DNA from: Erysipelotrichaceae bacterium
GTDB taxonomy: Bacteria > Bacillota_I > Bacilli_A > RFN20 > CAG-826
Assembly (NCBI GenBank): GCA_031271635.1
Contig: JAISVG010000084.1
Coordinates: 1-45,090, forward strand
Direction: 5' to 3'
DNA: 45,090 nucleotides
In this document: positions 21,422-34,664 of the stretch, one piece after another
How positions within the stretch are numbered: position 1 is the stretch's first letter
How the letters are laid out: the number at the start of each line of letters is the position of its first letter
Notes under the pieces: model-generated
The model's database searches: none
Told to the model about the DNA's origin: nothing
What the model saw: the letters and a program-made list of their open reading frames with translations, nothing else
Translations under genes and position numbers: made by a program

Positions 21422-21506
21422 GCGGTTATGGCGGAACTGGTAGACGCGCTAGACTTAGGATCTAGTGGGGAATCCCGTGCAGGTTCAAGTCCTGTTAACC
21501 GCACCA
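21422..21506 (+). tRNA. tRNA-Leu (anticodon UAG), class II with a long variable arm; integration target of the element
   Basis: Hand fold: GCGGTTA/TAACCGC acceptor, anticodon loop CTTAGGA, variable arm TGGGGAATCCCGT, T-arm GCAGG-TTCAAGT-CCTGT, then ACCA. An extended -10 (TGGTATAAT, 21402-21410) lies upstream. Confidence 0.9.
21490..21506 (+). repeat. attL core (3' end of tRNA-Leu)
   Basis: The 17-nt perfect repeat TCCTGTTAACCGCACCA extends to 22 nt (21485-21506) with one mismatch against 34261-34282. Confidence 0.85.
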
Positions 21507-21562: not shown

Positions 21563-21591
21563 GATACACTTTTGATACACTTTTATGTATC
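21563..21591. repeat. GATACAY heptamer array (2 direct + 1 inverted); candidate arm-type integrase sites, attL side
   Basis: GATACACTTTT occurs twice in tandem (21563-21573 and 21574-21584), followed by an inverted ATGTATC (21585-21591). The same heptamer recurs at the attR side. Confidence 0.5.
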
Positions 21592-22689
21592 AGAAGCATC
21601 AATCTTTAACTTAATTTTGCTCTTTAGATCTTCATCTGTAGGAGTATAATAGGTATCTGTTACGTTTGGATTAGAATGGCCTAACCAAGCGGCACGATCA
21701 TACTTATCAAAACCAAGACTTTTAAGATAGAGATTAGAGGATCTTCTAAAGTCATGAATCTTGATACGCTTAAGATTAACGGCTTTAGTATACTCATCAA
21801 GAATTCTTCGAATCGAGGTTTCACCGATTACTAAGGAATTCTTATTCTCTGACTTAAAAAGATAATCTTCCGAATTTGTTTTTTTATCTAATAATAAATA
21901 AAGGGCCTTGATTTCTTTAGTTAATGGATAAACACGATTTGAAGAATTAGTCTTTAGTATTGATTCTACTTGATGGCCTTTACCGGTTTTATTGGTGATA
22001 GATCTTTCAATAAAAACTAGATCATTCATCGTATCAATATCTTGGTGCTTTAATCCCCTTAATTCACCAATTCTAAGGCCATAATAAAAAAGAAGTGAAA
22101 ATAATAATTTATGATCAGTATTTTTAACTGCAGCAATAAATGATAGGAATTCTTCATGAGACCAAAATGATTGCTTATTCGTTTTCTTTAGCGGCACATT
22201 CTTTATCTTCAGAATTGAATAATCGAGATTCTTATCAAGGCCATATTTTGTTAAAAAATCTAAGAATAACTTTAAAGCGGCAATTAACTTAGTTTTATTA
22301 GATAGATTTACCCTCTCAAACTGCATTATGAGCTTACTTAAGGTAAGATTACTGATATTATCCACGCTGAGCCGCTCTAAATGAGGTTTAATGTATTTAT
22401 TAAAAGTTAAAACATGAGTATAAGCCGTTGTGTCACGATATTCTTTTTCTAAGTGACTAAGATAAAGAGGAATTAGTTCATTTATGGTCCACTTCTTTTG
22501 CTTTTTTTCAGTAACACCAAGCGTGAGATTCTCGTAATGGAGAGCTGCAGCAGATAAAGCCTGGGCTTCGCTAGTAAAGCCTCTCCGAAGAAGTTTATCG
22601 CCTTTATAGCAAAGACGGTAATAAAACTGAAGCTTAGGTTTTCCATCAAGGTCTTTTACATAATAAGGATAAACTCTAACGCCTCGCAT
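21583..22689 (-). CDS. int: Tyrosine recombinase / phage integrase
   Basis: The C-terminal catalytic region has RIGELRGL, HDFRRS, LGHSN and TDTYY (R..HxxR..H..Y). An N-terminal arm-binding-like domain is present. I start it at MRGVRVYPYY (22689); the track ORF extends to 22749. Confidence 0.85.
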   Translation of the reverse strand: MRGVRVYPYYVKDLDGKPKLQFYYRLCYKGDKLLRRGFTSEAQALSAAALHYENLTLGVTEKKQKKWTINELIPLYLSHLEKEYRDTTAYTHVLTFNKYIKPHLERLSVDNISNLTLSKLIMQFERVNLSNKTKLIAALKLFLDFLTKYGLDKNLDYSILKIKNVPLKKTNKQSFWSHEEFLSFIAAVKNTDHKLLFSLLFYYGLRIGELRGLKHQDIDTMNDLVFIERSITNKTGKGHQVESILKTNSSNRVYPLTKEIKALYLLLDKKTNSEDYLFKSENKNSLVIGETSIRRILDEYTKAVNLKRIKIHDFRRSSNLYLKSLGFDKYDRAAWLGHSNPNVTDTYYTPTDEDLKSKIKLKIDASDT

Positions 22690-22912
22690 ACATTGGTCTC
22701 CGACAAATTTCTTGAAGTTCATATTTTGAATAGTCAAATCGATGATCATTAATCATTGCTTTAATAAGACGGTTAATATCACCAAAAGAATAACAACTAA
22801 AAAACTTCTCAAGAACCATATCGGCATATTTAAAAAGCGATCTTTCGTCACGAAGGTTACAGGCCAGAATAAACTGCCGCTTTTCATAATCGGTTAAATT
22901 ATAATAATTCAT
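22676..22912 (-). CDS. Small hypothetical protein between rep and int (excisionase/RDF position)
   Basis: Start MNYYNLTDYEK, preceded by AAGGAGA 8 nt upstream. The longer track ORF start (23005) lies inside rep. No motif is recognised. Confidence 0.45.
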   Translation of the reverse strand: MNYYNLTDYEKRQFILACNLRDERSLFKYADMVLEKFFSCYSFGDINRLIKAMINDHRFDYSKYELQEICRRPMYARR

Positions 22913-24083
22913 CTTTAATATTCTCCTTTTTAACAAGCTCGCCAGTAAGGCGATTATAGCCTGGGGACTCAATAAAACGCTTAAGGCTCTCTTTAGCCTC
23001 ATCAAGCGTTACATGAGGTTTACCTTCATGACGGTTCATCTCATTAATAATTGCGAGATCTTTATAAGTAAATTTATCAAGTAACCTTTCACAAGAAATA
23101 GTTTCAATTAAAGAAGCTTTTGAAGGATCATTAATAATAAGTCTTGCTAGAATCATCGAAGCCGCTTTAATAAACCAATCTTTTTGGACGACCAAGGTTT
23201 TTTCAACTTCATACTGGACCTTAATAGATTCCTTAGAAACATTCTTAAGAAGCTTGTCCCATTTAGACCAATTTTCTTCTTTATTACGATTAGAAATATC
23301 ATACTTAAGATTTTGCTTAAAGGCGACTAAACCACCAAGCGAAGCAGCAATTACACGATTAATAGTTTCACTCTCTAAAGCAAGATGAAGTTTAACAAAC
23401 ATTGTTTCAGCGACTTCATCATACCAACGAGCTTCAAATCTGACCCAATCAGCAACATTGACTAAATAGTTCTTTTTCTCACGTTCAGCGGCTTTATTAT
23501 AAATACAAAGTTGTTTTGTTTCGCGACCACCGATATAAAAAGTAAAACCATCATTTTTAGAAATAATTAGTTTTTCTTTAACTTTATCAAGAATTTCAAC
23601 GTCATTAACCGTAATGTTCCACTTTCTGAAGTTAGTAGCATACTCTCTTTTAATGATTTTTTGATAAAGTTCCATCGCTTTAATACTTCCAGAATAATCA
23701 TCAATAGGAGTATCAATTCTCGTTGCTTTAAAACCCATTTTATAAAGCAAATCAAAAACCTTCAGCCAAGGATTATAGGAGTCAGAATTATTATTCTCAA
23801 CATCACGACAAGCATCACCAGATAATAATATTTGAGTACGCCATTCACCATGATTCCGAGGCTCTTCATCAGTAAAGAATTTCACACGACTGCCATAAAG
23901 ATAGCCTTTTTGATAACCATTAAGCGCATGATCCAAAGGAGTATACTCAAAAGGTTCATAGCCTAAGGACCTAATTAATAAAGAAAAATCGTTAGGAGTA
24001 AAAACTAACCTAAAAGTACCACTAACCCAATCGATTAAAGCATTGACTTTAAGATTATCTTGATCTTCTTTTAAATACATCAT
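22899..24083 (-). CDS. rep: Rolling-circle replication initiator, Rep_trans (PF02486)-like
   Basis: The N-terminus ALIDWVSGTFRL and the block ILLSGDACRDVE resemble the IDWLS.TF and SGqgCr signatures of the family that includes pT181 RepC and CTXphi RstA. Recognised from memory only. Confidence 0.6.
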   Translation of the reverse strand: MMYLKEDQDNLKVNALIDWVSGTFRLVFTPNDFSLLIRSLGYEPFEYTPLDHALNGYQKGYLYGSRVKFFTDEEPRNHGEWRTQILLSGDACRDVENNNSDSYNPWLKVFDLLYKMGFKATRIDTPIDDYSGSIKAMELYQKIIKREYATNFRKWNITVNDVEILDKVKEKLIISKNDGFTFYIGGRETKQLCIYNKAAEREKKNYLVNVADWVRFEARWYDEVAETMFVKLHLALESETINRVIAASLGGLVAFKQNLKYDISNRNKEENWSKWDKLLKNVSKESIKVQYEVEKTLVVQKDWFIKAASMILARLIINDPSKASLIETISCERLLDKFTYKDLAIINEMNRHEGKPHVTLDEAKESLKRFIESPGYNRLTGELVKKENIKDELL

Positions 24084-31938: not shown

Positions 31939-33039
31939 TTAGATCTCCTTTTCTTTTAACTGATTAATCATTGAACCTAGTTCGATTCTCTCAAAAATAT
32001 ATGAACCAGAATACTTATAATCTAACTTCCGGTAATTCTGAAAGGCTTCTTTACCATCTTTATCCGCTGCAGTAAAAATAAACCATGAGAATAATTCATG
32101 GAGCTTATCATTAATGAGCCGGTAGAATTTAAAACCTAAAGTCTTGGCTTCATCAACTAAAAGCCAATTATCAGGATTCTTAATAAATTCTTCACGTTGT
32201 TTATCATTTTTAAGAGTTTGATTAGGGTTACGTTTTTTAGTAACAGCTTTAACATCATTACCTTTTTCAAATTTTTTAGGAGCGAATAATTCAGTTAATT
32301 TATCTTTTAGGTTTAAAAAAAATTTATCAAGTTTTTTTGAATTTTCAATAAAAAAATGTTTGAAATTATCTTTAATATAAAAACCACCTAAAGAATAAAC
32401 CGAAGTTTCTAAATTAAGATTTAATTGGATCTTTAAATCTTTTTTTTCTAAGAAGCTAAATAAGATTTCATATATGAAATAAAATGAATTAGAATTATTA
32501 ACTTTACTAAATTTTATATCTTTAACATGACTCTTTTCAGGAATAAAAGGAAAAGCTTTAAACCAAGCTTGTTTAATTTCTTCTTCTAAAGCAAGATAAG
32601 AGTCGGACGTCCGACCTGATTTTTTAATCTCACGGATTTTCCTAATTGTAAAAGTTGCAGGAAGATTCTTCCTATCATCTTCAGGAATAGAAAGAAGTTC
32701 TGTTAATTGAGAAAAGGAATAATCTTTATATTCCTTCTTTAGTTCTAAGGAATACATTGAGTCATCTTGATTAGAAAAAGTGATATATACTCGAATTAAA
32801 TTTTTGATAGTTGTAAGAGAAAGATTAAATCTTTCCTTTGCAAAGTCTTCAATTGTTTCATAATTAGCAGTTAAATAAAGTTTTTCATCTCTAATCTTAG
32901 AAAGTCTAGAACCAATTCTTAAAAATTGTTTTTCAATCTCTCCCATCGATGCATCAATGGAAGAAGAAAGATCTACCAATTTTTGATAATTTTTGATTAA
33001 TGTGAAACTATCATTTAATTCGGTATTATTTTTTGCCAT
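31939..33039 (-). CDS. First gene of the long leftward operon; 366-aa protein of unknown function
   Basis: RBS AAAGGAG. The N-terminal ~90 aa (FLRIGSRLSKIRDEKLY...YETIEDFAKERFNLSLTTIKNLIRVY) weakly resemble HTH/ParB-like early-phage DNA-binding modules. Confidence 0.55.
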   Translation of the reverse strand: MAKNNTELNDSFTLIKNYQKLVDLSSSIDASMGEIEKQFLRIGSRLSKIRDEKLYLTANYETIEDFAKERFNLSLTTIKNLIRVYITFSNQDDSMYSLELKKEYKDYSFSQLTELLSIPEDDRKNLPATFTIRKIREIKKSGRTSDSYLALEEEIKQAWFKAFPFIPEKSHVKDIKFSKVNNSNSFYFIYEILFSFLEKKDLKIQLNLNLETSVYSLGGFYIKDNFKHFFIENSKKLDKFFLNLKDKLTELFAPKKFEKGNDVKAVTKKRNPNQTLKNDKQREEFIKNPDNWLLVDEAKTLGFKFYRLINDKLHELFSWFIFTAADKDGKEAFQNYRKLDYKYSGSYIFERIELGSMINQLKEKEI

Positions 33040-33149
33040 GTTCGAACTCCTTTGTGCAATGAAAGCACATTATGATTATATTATGAGAATAATTGACACA
33101 AATGTCAATCAAAATGTGCAATCAAAGAACAAAAAAGTAAAATTAAAAT
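33040..33149. promoter_or_regulatory. Divergent promoter/operator region (genetic-switch-like)
   Basis: The palindrome TTGACAcaaaTGTCAA (33093-33108) gives back-to-back -35 boxes. The leftward promoter is TTGACA-17 nt-CATAAT, with the -10 at 33080-33085 on the minus strand. The repeat TGTGCAAT(G/C)AAAG occurs at 33053-33065 and 33115-33127. Confidence 0.5.
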
Positions 33150-33500
33150 ATGAAAATGCTTTTAAAGCTAAGAAAACAATACAAAAAAACACAAGAAGAA
33201 GTAGCTAAAGCAATTTATATGGACAGATCTCAGTATAGCAAAATAGAAAACGGAAAAATGGGAATTGCTTTCGATCAAATATTACTTTTATCAAAATTTT
33301 ACGGAATATCATTAGCAGCATTTGGAAGTGATAACGAAGAATTAATTGTATTAACAAAAAACCAATACAAACTTTTAATACAAGTTAAAAACATGATAGA
33401 AGATCTTGAAAGAGGGCAAAATATAACAGATAATTTTAAAGATTCAACAATTAATGGAGATGTTGTAATAGGACATAACAACATAATAAAAAAAAAGTAA
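33150..33500 (+). CDS. XRE/cI-family HTH repressor
   Basis: LRKQYKKTQEEVAKAIYMDRSQYSKIENGKMGIAFDQILLLSKFYGISL is a canonical HTH_3 pattern. The gene is divergent from the long operon. Confidence 0.8.
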   Translation: MKMLLKLRKQYKKTQEEVAKAIYMDRSQYSKIENGKMGIAFDQILLLSKFYGISLAAFGSDNEELIVLTKNQYKLLIQVKNMIEDLERGQNITDNFKDSTINGDVVIGHNNIIKKK

Positions 33501-33518
33501 TCATAAAAAAGGAGTATT

Positions 33519-34139
33519 ATGGCAAAAATTTGTAAAATATGTGGAAAACAAGGGTACATGTACTTTCAATATTGTTATGAACACTTACAACAAATAAAAA
33601 AAGAAGGACAAAATAGTGAAGAAAAAAAAGAAAACACGTGCAAAAAATGTGGAAAACCAAGTGGAGAATATGATCTATGCTATAAATGCTATAGAACAAA
33701 AGTTGAAGAAGATCTAAAGCAAGACAGAAGCATATTAATTCAAAGCGAAAAAGATAGCGGAATTGATATTAGAGATAAATGGCCAGCAGAAATAAGAACA
33801 ATACAAGGGTGTAAAGTAAGAAGTCATGCAGAATGCAGAATAGCAGACTGGCTATACTCACAAGAAGTAAGATATGATTACGAAAGACAACTATATAAAA
33901 AAGACGACGTAGAGAAATTTTTACTTTCGGATTTTTTTCTTCCTGATTACAAAATCTACATAGAGTACTGGGGATATAAAGATAGCGAAACATACAACAA
34001 AAGAAGAGAAGAAAAAATGCAAATATACAAATTTAACGAATGCATAGTTGAACACCTACAAGACAGGGATCTAAAAGTTTTAGACGACGCACTAAGAGCG
34101 ATTGCAATAAAACACGGTATCAAACTAAAGAACCCGTGA
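33519..34139 (+). CDS. Two zinc fingers plus a PD-(D/E)XK-like (restriction-endonuclease fold) domain protein
   Basis: CKICGKQGYMYFQYCYEH and CKKCGKPSGEYDLCYKCY are followed by SHAECRIADWLYSQEVRYDYERQ...LSDFFLPDYKIYIEYWGYK. The latter resembles the nuclease-fold module seen at the N-terminus of helicase IV-type proteins. RBS AAAGGAG; 18 nt downstream of the repressor. Confidence 0.55.
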   Translation: MAKICKICGKQGYMYFQYCYEHLQQIKKEGQNSEEKKENTCKKCGKPSGEYDLCYKCYRTKVEEDLKQDRSILIQSEKDSGIDIRDKWPAEIRTIQGCKVRSHAECRIADWLYSQEVRYDYERQLYKKDDVEKFLLSDFFLPDYKIYIEYWGYKDSETYNKRREEKMQIYKFNECIVEHLQDRDLKVLDDALRAIAIKHGIKLKNP

Positions 34140-34156: not shown

Positions 34157-34265
34157 AACTATTTTATTCAAAAGAATAAATAATATTAATGTGATTCTCA
34201 ACCACAAAAAATAAGTTAAATATTCAATAGTTGAATATTTATACTTAAATAATTGAAAGATCAAT

Positions 34266-34282
34266 TCCTGTTAACCGCACCA
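34266..34282 (+). repeat. attR core (duplicate of the tRNA-Leu 3' end)
   Basis: TCCTGTTAACCGCACCA is identical to 21490-21506. Confidence 0.85.
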
Positions 34283-34664
34283 ACACACGATGAAATGGCC
34301 CATAAAAGGGCTGTTTTTATTTCTATGAAATTTAAGATTGTTTTATCTAAGATCCTGAGTTCATCCTTTTTAATGATTAGAAAGCTGTGAGGAACTTTGT
34401 GATAATTTAGCTTTAGAACAGATTCCTAATTTTTCTAAAAGTCATAGATTATTGAATATGGAGAGTTTTTGAACAACAAAGCAAGGTCAAAGTGCAGCAG
34501 GAGCATCTAAAGGCCATTTTATGGTAAATCAACTAGATAGTTCTTTTTGAAGGCCGTTCTGCCTTGTAACTTCGAGTGAACTTAGATTATCGCTCACTCG
34601 CTAGCGGATGATAAAAAAGAAATTATGTCATTGTCGATTTCAGAGTATCTAATGAGGAGCAAAA

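Follow-up and report, generated by a model that had tools for sequence, protein, structure and literature searches.

This analysis concerns a gene of an integrated element in an Erysipelotrichaceae bacterium (GenBank assembly GCA_031271635.1). The window, meaning the whole stretch of DNA that was analysed, comprises the 45,090 nucleotides of contig JAISVG010000084.1 read on the forward strand. Near one end of the element, a plus-strand gene for an XRE-family helix-turn-helix (HTH) protein of 116 aa (33150..33500) is followed, after a plus-strand spacer of 18 nt (33501..33518) with the ribosome-binding site AGGAG at 33510-33514, by the gene of interest (33519..34139, plus strand), which encodes a 206-aa protein with two zinc ribbons and a predicted PD-(D/E)XK nuclease domain. 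A preliminary description of the sequence had reported this pair and its 18-nt gap as the only two plus-strand genes of a prophage, with an XRE repressor first and a nuclease-like protein second, next to the right attachment site, attR. Both open reading frames (ORFs) are present, and no other plus-strand ORF of 90 aa or more lies between the direct repeats that bound the element. The first can be regarded as the presumed repressor of the element, given its matches to Pfam HTH_3 (5.5e-14) and to phrog_3 'transcriptional repressor' (3.5e-10), and it is the only HTH gene detected at the switch described below. The second lies directly behind it, with its stop codon 126 nt short of the attR core. 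That the 206-aa ORF is a real gene can be seen from its homologues, which include seven metagenomic proteins at 52-60% identity and 1,359 cluster representatives that match at E<=1e-3.

The element itself is a 12.8-kb segment whose borders are direct repeats matching the 3' end of tRNA-Leu(tag). The attL core (21490..21506, plus strand) is formed by the last 17 nt of the tRNA gene and is repeated without change at the attR core (34266..34282, plus strand), the duplicated tRNA-Leu 3' end; over 29 nt (21478-21506 versus 34254-34282) the two copies are 86% identical, with the final 17 nt identical. At the far end from the gene pair is a tyrosine integrase (21583..22749, minus strand; phrog_1 8.9e-44, Pfam Phage_integrase 3.3e-17), followed by a Rep_trans rolling-circle initiator (22899-24083). 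The first gene of a leftward operon (31939-33039, minus strand) encodes 366 aa with a weak DUF3102 match and a match to phrog_15077 (3e-21), and between this operon and the XRE gene lies a divergent intergenic region (33040..33149) that is the putative switch. Family searches of the element's proteins recognised no capsid, terminase or tail family. For this reason, 'integrated mobile element, possibly a non-tailed virus' is a safer wording than the earlier term prophage, and it is preferred here.

Fold and predicted active site of the 206-aa protein

The two zinc fingers claimed in the preliminary description can be read directly from the protein sequence. They make up an N-terminal module of residues 1-60 (33519..33698, plus strand), in which the first ribbon is C5xxC8...C19xxH22 and the second is C41xxC44...C54xxC57, and the cysteine positions are kept in close homologues. 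This module is modelled with a pLDDT of 78-97, has a single weak Pfam match (DZR_2, 0.0065) and matches no known reader domain in Pfam and domain searches. In the full-length AlphaFold2 model, which was built from 54 homologues and has a pLDDT of 89.6, two small ribbon units at residues 1-30 and 38-60 lead into a long helix at 55-79; a short hinge at 72-77 is disordered, and an alpha/beta domain spans 84-199. The model, Foldseek comparisons, residue conservation and the PADLOC match to PDC-S69 all point to a Vsr/TnsA-like PD-(D/E)XK domain at residues 84-199 (33768..34115, plus strand). Modelled alone (pLDDT 92.8, pTM 0.87), the domain has the element order H-E-E-E-E-H-E and displays the alpha-beta-beta-beta-alpha-beta core fold of the PD-(D/E)XK superfamily, within its Vsr/TnsA/DUF559-like branch.

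The top Foldseek matches in the PDB are all PD-(D/E)XK proteins, namely the homing endonuclease I-Bth0305I (3r3p, TM 0.54-0.71), Vsr (1vsr, 0.53) and TnsA (1f1z/1t0f, 0.55-0.57), and further matches include PvuRts1I/AbaSI, the R2 endonuclease and a Vsr-like mitoribosomal protein. The E-values of these matches are modest, about 1e-2; despite this, the TM-scores indicate that the predicted domain shares the PD-(D/E)XK fold. The closest predicted viral structures are DUF559 and zinc-finger nucleases (E 4e-8 to 1e-5). The restriction-endonuclease-like fold previously suspected for a C-terminal block, which falls at residues 105-124 and 138-154, is thus backed by the AlphaFold2 model and its structural matches. 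Sequence searches give less. An HMMER search of the PDB with the protein or with a 54-sequence profile returned no nuclease match, Pfam and NCBIfam hold no model for the nuclease domain, and in PHROGs the domain matches only weak nuclease families, phrog_9019 ('Holliday junction resolvase', 3.7e-7) and phrog_945.

The preliminary description had also called for catalytic D/E/K residues, and the acidic ones are present. S102, E105, D138, E149 and Y159 are invariant in all 264 domain sequences, E122 is present in 263 of them and K166 in 260. In the model, E105 is on the first helix (103-114), D138 is at the start of strand 2 (just before 139-141), E149 is within strand 3 (146-151) and K166 is on the helix that follows. 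The acidic residues therefore occupy helix 1, strand 2 and strand 3, as is characteristic of PD-(D/E)XK nucleases, but the position of the canonical lysine, two residues past the strand-3 acid, is taken by W151 (96% Trp in the family). On these patterns of conservation, E105 (33831-33833), D138 (33930-33932), E149 (33963-33965) and K166 (34014-34016), all encoded on the plus strand, are the probable active site, in which the helix lysine K166 probably takes over from the usual lysine of strand 3.

These same residues bear on whether the protein could be a catalytically inactive DNA-binding regulator that has kept the nuclease fold. Some observations point that way, since the canonical lysine is a tryptophan and four residues, D96, H98, D109 and H119, have been lost together in the subclade of this protein (which has Q, C, A and Y instead; within 33804-33875). 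These four positions are at least 87% conserved in the wider family, protein P0008 alone keeps all four within the close clade, and they may form a metal site or a specificity site that the clade has lost. However, the tryptophan is the norm of the family and not a loss specific to the clade, and the invariant acidic residues and the nearly invariant K166 are all kept here. An inactive regulator is, on this evidence, highly improbable.

Comparison with the closest solved structures can be used to place the domain more exactly. Like Vsr and I-Bth0305I, it has a helix-1 glutamate and a strand-2 aspartate (E25 and D51 in Vsr, E170 and D196 in I-Bth0305I), and it shares with I-Bth0305I a DNA-binding N terminus, predicted in this case, ahead of a C-terminal nuclease. 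The catalytic histidine of these two enzymes (H69 in Vsr, H213 in I-Bth0305I; PMC3239194) has no conserved counterpart by the conservation list, which is not a superposition, and no conserved histidine of the Vsr type follows the strand-3 acid anywhere in the 264-sequence alignment. By the same list, the sole candidate for the last aspartate of the EDxHD set is D190, which is 91% conserved. In place of the EDxHD His and Asp, this family keeps the strand-3 E149 and the K166 of the following helix. Because the catalytic histidine is without a conserved counterpart, the protein is, by its conserved residues, not an EDxHD member.

Family, domain partners and defence contexts

The strongest link to defence comes from PADLOC, where residues 61-203 match positions 152-288 of the 289-position PDC-S69 profile (E 6.6e-30); weaker matches are to the C terminus of PDC-S68 (about 1e-11) and to the HEAT_CxxC_PD-DEXK component model (2.4e-8). 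PDC-S69 members have the nuclease domain family in common with this protein, are likewise single genes without a methyltransferase and are found in defence islands. Typical members differ in being about 295 aa long with KilAC or winged-helix N termini, whereas this protein has 206 aa and two zinc ribbons. Preprints on END nucleases and on protease effectors were considered as possible sources of a matching family and were rejected, as they concern other families.

The family is both large and diverse in its partners. The cluster representatives found in the exhaustive HMMER search carry the C-terminal domain behind very different N termini. For example, 65 of 263 retrieved members resemble this protein in having two or more CxxC motifs on the N-terminal side of the domain, while most of the others have KilAC or winged-helix modules and a few have ankyrin, MORN or HEAT repeats. 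Two family members show weak Pfam matches to PvuRts1I-like_N. Monophyly of the close clade, which is of the zinc-ribbon type, has a support of 0.98. The domain also ends many UvrD-type helicases on plasmids, including many from Acinetobacter and Vibrio, and on a Methylotuvimicrobium conjugative plasmid (L060, NC_016108.1, 3496-7381) a split form can be seen, in which a stand-alone member directly follows a UvrD-helicase gene. The helicase/nuclease fusions (PDC-S68) have the same domain at their C terminus, but this element has no helicase partner.

Occurrence is patchy, with members in 6 of 41 relatives and in 20 of 399 genomes sampled in the phylum. The DUF559 model (PF04480) matched one of 150 genomes sampled there. 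Phages are nearly devoid of the family. A single weak partial match was found in 50,697 phage records, and a search of viral contigs with the family alignment gave three weak partial matches only. The nuclease is therefore not a typical phage gene.

In the case of distant members, the genomic surroundings often resemble defence islands. A Bacillus member is flanked by McrC-like, HNH, integrase and Type I restriction-modification genes, another member is found among NERD, DUF2726, helicase and primase genes, and a Nostoc plasmid member is found among toxin-antitoxin and nuclease genes. In five genomes of the host's phylum, the neighbours include PADLOC matches to PDC-S01, PDC-S02 and DrmD/DpdF-like proteins, mixed with housekeeping genes. 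A partner methyltransferase is missing throughout, as none was found in the element, none directly adjoins a homologue in any locus examined, and most flanks have none; L051 has a Type I restriction-modification methylase at a distance of about 6 kb, and L024 has a small methyltransferase two genes from the homologue. In having no cognate methyltransferase, the nuclease resembles Type IV restriction enzymes, which also have a domain that reads modified bases and cut in dependence on the modification.

Among known enzymes, PvuRts1I and AbaSI offer a parallel to such an arrangement. They too combine a sensor with a nuclease in a stand-alone protein without a methylase, and their nuclease domain is among the Foldseek matches. 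The domain order is reversed, however, the fold similarity is lower (TM about 0.4), and where these enzymes have an SRA-like modification reader this protein has zinc ribbons.

A cargo slot behind the repressor gene

Related elements can be used to ask which genes form the backbone of this element and which are accessory. Homologues of the element's 754-aa membrane ATPase are present in 31 of 251 genomes of the host's order, and 20 loci with such homologues (L082-L101) were mapped against this element. An int-Rep-ATPase backbone is seen repeatedly, and opposite to it, at the divergent end, are one to three XRE genes in tandem; the integrase type varies, being either a tyrosine recombinase or a serine recombinase on the XRE side. 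Members of the nuclease family are present in three of the 20, at differing positions. One element (G037) has two copies that end the XRE-side operon, the first of them 3 nt after the third XRE gene, while in two others (G006 and G589) a single copy lies at the element's other end. Because 17 of the 20 have no family member, the nuclease is dispensable cargo of the backbone. A core role in replication or morphogenesis was rejected, as most related elements do without the gene, and the alternative offered in the preliminary description, a recombination directionality or replication accessory factor, is unlikely given the same 17 elements. The two G037 copies (L090, G037:C4; 636-1379 and 2428-3312, both on the minus strand) are diverged paralogues in tandem behind three tandem XRE genes, and the 294-aa paralogue departs from the family at conserved positions (E122 to G, R101 to K).

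The position behind the XRE gene can also be occupied by a different nuclease. In two related elements, an Mrr_cat domain (3.8e-21 and 8.1e-19) fused to HRDC is encoded directly behind XRE (L092:15949-16641, plus strand; L094:3129-3884, minus strand), in proteins of 230 and 250 aa; the L092 gene shares the last base of XRE and the L094 gene overlaps XRE by 44 nt. These proteins are alike to the 206-aa protein in slot, in approximate size and in pairing a PD-(D/E)XK nuclease with a nucleic-acid-binding module, but they belong to the Mrr branch, use HRDC as the binding domain and have the nuclease at the N terminus. Elsewhere the XRE-side slot is taken by a recombinase, by another XRE gene or by small genes of unknown kind, and in 15 of the 20 elements no nuclease was detected in either slot. 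Judged by gene content and order, the slot behind the repressor gene appears to be open to interchangeable genes, in each of which a nuclease is joined to a module that binds nucleic acid.

Close homologues of the protein are few, with only seven proteins, all metagenomic, above 50% identity. In three of their loci (L003, L004, L005) the order is XRE, homologue, Peptidase_M78 (ImmA-like), and in a fourth (L006) it is XRE, homologue, a 39-aa ORF and a partial gene matching the metalloprotease family phrog_87. Another (L007) has an HTH gene one gene upstream of the homologue, and in L001 the homologue is beside a Rep_1 gene and an rve integrase. The gap between XRE and homologue is 27, 10 and 3 nt in L003, L006 and L090, respectively. 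The XRE/nuclease/ImmA-like order (L003 5353-6992; L006 4445-6256) comes from two elements of one metagenome series, and the gene at 31939-33039 is the sole backbone gene that this element has in common with these two, its DUF3102/phrog_15077 counterparts being 25-28% identical to it.

What these loci share is the nuclease rather than its neighbours. Nuclease identity is 52-61% in every pair of loci, while the element's XRE protein is at most 25% identical to the XRE proteins of the other loci, which are about 40% identical among themselves, and the ImmA-like proteins are 37% identical to each other. The nuclease gene has a GC content of 27-35% compared with 38-50% for its neighbours in L003, L006, L007 and L001; in L003, for instance, the values are 31.5% for the nuclease, 40.5% for XRE and 50.5% for ImmA. 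DNA similarity between loci stops at the borders of the nuclease ORF. Because the nuclease is more conserved and AT-richer than its neighbours, and because similarity ends at the ORF borders, the ORF behaves as a cassette that has been placed repeatedly into the immunity operons of different elements.

A gene that is better conserved than its surroundings and of different base composition could also be a selfish, free-standing endonuclease of the homing type, which would cut nuclease-free alleles of related elements and spread by break repair without benefit to the host. The closest solved fold is the catalytic domain of the homing endonuclease I-Bth0305I, predicted viral structures that combine a zinc finger with a DUF559-like nuclease match at E 1e-8 to 1e-4 and in some cases carry a homing-endonuclease annotation, and distant homologues are found as solitary insertions between housekeeping genes. 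However, this gene is in neither an intron nor an intein, and no conserved flank could serve as the homing site, for the flanks are non-homologous across loci, the flanking XRE genes included. The EDxHD histidine has no conserved counterpart and the last aspartate is unmatched except by the candidate D190. The gene is co-oriented with the repressor and not part of a lytic or replication operon, and its family is almost absent from sequenced phages and is embedded in or beside restriction-modification and other defence loci. Homing is thus an unlikely explanation.

The order XRE-nuclease is also that of XRE-antitoxin/toxin pairs, which suggests that the two genes might form a toxin-antitoxin or addiction module for keeping the element stable, in which XRE would control the nuclease as the toxin. 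Weak matches of the XRE protein to antitoxin and control-protein models, NCBIfam Y4mF (7.9e-6) and the PADLOC 'Control_protein' (9.3e-7), point the same way. The partners of such a pair should be conserved together, and the identities given above for XRE and nuclease show that they are not. Homologues without an adjacent HTH gene exist, so a dedicated antidote is apparently not needed, and the place of the XRE gene at the element's divergent switch is a better fit to a repressor. We rejected the toxin-antitoxin pair as the principal explanation, as its partners are not co-conserved, and consider it very unlikely.

More closely tied to the element would be a role in its own life cycle, in which the nuclease processes rolling-circle or recombination intermediates, degrades host DNA or feeds DNA damage or single-stranded DNA into an induction switch of the ImmR/ImmA type. 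In L003 and L006 the gene is inside the immunity operon, between XRE and the ImmA-like protease; some nuclease is present in five of 21 related elements (this one included) and in four of these it follows the XRE gene or genes; and the phrog_9019 match, although weak, is to a 'Holliday junction resolvase'. Against this, the gene is dispensable for the backbone, being missing from most related elements, the G006 and G589 copies are at the opposite end of the element, family searches of this element's proteins found no ImmA gene, and the family also occurs far from any mobile element. A life-cycle role is accordingly hard to favour, and we judge it distinctly unlikely.

Expression and proposed role

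With these alternatives weighed, the interpretation that we favour, at slightly better than even odds (about 0.55), is that of a stand-alone nuclease for defence or exclusion that the silent element would express. The preliminary description had already named the gene a candidate of this kind, and that candidacy is strengthened by the PDC-S69 match, the XRE-nuclease adjacency conserved in diverged elements, the cargo status of the gene, the Mrr_cat+HRDC proteins in the same slot of two relatives and the defence-island-like contexts of distant members. The catalytic activity, the substrate and the protective phenotype of the 206-aa protein are inferred, as is its transcription together with the repressor. 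Precedents exist among prophages, whose immunity operons can include exclusion genes: lambda rexAB is co-transcribed with cI, and P2 old/tin/fun and lactococcal sie, the latter beside the repressor, are further examples. Those cases resemble the present one in that an accessory gene lies next to the repressor gene at the element's edge and points the same way. The proteins are unrelated, however, and in place of a tailed phage the carrier is a small rolling-circle element that apparently has no tail.

Expression in the silent state would follow from gene order, since the nuclease gene, sitting 18 nt behind the XRE gene, would be expressed each time the repressor is. Between the XRE and nuclease genes, and onward to attR, no terminator-like site was detected, and the first intrinsic-terminator-like hairpin downstream of the pair (34292..34317, plus strand) is just outside attR and is probably the native terminator of tRNA-Leu. 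The hairpin and the lack of an internal terminator are consistent with a single transcript that ends at the native tRNA terminator. Together with the short gap and the conserved adjacency, they lend indirect support to joint transcription of nuclease and repressor. A gene placed between repressor and protease, as in the close-homologue loci, should likewise be expressed in the silent state. The leftward operon has a near-consensus promoter, TTGACA-17-CATAAT (33108 to 33080), inside the 33040-33149 region, whose role as an operator is putative. In the excised circle, the XRE-nuclease transcript would cross attP into the antisense strand of the integrase gene.

In this interpretation the zinc ribbons would bind nucleic acid or choose the target, with the helix joining them to the Vsr/TnsA-like domain, and the PD-(D/E)XK domain would cleave, with E105, D138, E149 and K166 as its probable active site. 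Incoming foreign DNA, such as that of a phage or a competing rolling-circle element, would be cut, protecting the host cell and the resident element alike. The nuclease would do this without a partner methyltransferase, in the manner of modification-dependent or structure-specific restriction enzymes. Since no methyltransferase lies nearby, the cell's own DNA would presumably be spared not by methylation but by dependence on DNA modification, by structure specificity or by activation only on infection.

Several observations weigh against this interpretation. The PDC-S69 match is confined to the C-terminal 137 of 289 profile positions, and the N-terminal module differs. PDC systems are described by their authors as untested candidates, picked for being embedded in BREX, DISARM or Type I restriction-modification loci (Payne et al. 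2024, 10.1101/2024.01.29.577857), and no mention of PDC-S69 or of the HEAT_CxxC_PD-DEXK model was found in the literature searched. The nearest solved structure is that of a homing endonuclease, and the joint loss of D96, H98, D109 and H119 means that activity or specificity may differ from that of the wider family. Several homologues of 30-39% identity stand alone amid housekeeping genes (S4/SecA, Mur/FtsW and RNase J), among them three of the zinc-ribbon type at 30-36%. In the window the nuclease gene, at 32% GC, does not differ from the element, at 33%. Co-transcription with the repressor is not the sole option, as a possible internal sigma-70-like promoter, TTGAAA-17-GATAAT (10 of 12 matches; 33406..33434, plus strand), lies within the 3'-terminal part of XRE and could allow the nuclease gene to be transcribed on its own; by consensus matching only, 12 such sites were found in the region where 9.2 would be expected by chance. 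Finally, no means of telling self from foreign DNA was identified.

If the defence interpretation is true, the gene would represent a compact, methylase-free, restriction-type nuclease of 206 aa from a widespread and wholly uncharacterised family. Its carriers are a common family of small integrated elements in small-genome, hard-to-culture bacteria, in which it is exchangeable cargo. It could serve as a clean test case for the PADLOC candidate PDC-S69, the slot that it occupies could be searched for further defence genes, and the repeated CxxCG...C-xx-C/H ribbon is a possible new DNA-recognition module. No concept is overturned by this, as accessory defence-type nucleases beside a repressor and silent-state prophage nucleases are already known, and the nuclease family had been flagged in PADLOC. 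What is new is that the nuclease is joined to zinc ribbons, that its gene behaves as a cassette and can sit between a repressor and a protease, and that within a common family of small elements a non-orthologous Mrr+HRDC protein can replace it.

A bolder proposal, which we hold to be very doubtful, is that the nuclease is wired into the immunity switch itself. The ribbons would sense foreign DNA, the nuclease would cut it, and the resulting ends or single-stranded DNA would trigger loss of the repressor, coupling defence to escape of the element. This suggestion arises from gene order: two relatives have the gene between an ImmR-like repressor and an ImmA-like protease, and in this element it immediately follows the repressor. 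In a more modest form, the XRE-adjacent slot of this widespread family of rolling-circle elements may be a dedicated hotspot for interchangeable sensor-nuclease cargo, either Vsr-like with zinc ribbons or Mrr+HRDC.

A minor observation concerns the annotation of the wider family. The KilAC-type proteins of about 295 aa are the type modelled by PDC-S69, and public records often name them 'glycerol kinase'. In the case of the KilAC-nuclease proteins of Bacillus and Paenibacillus (P0161, P0170, P0175 and others), this label is apparently a propagated misannotation.

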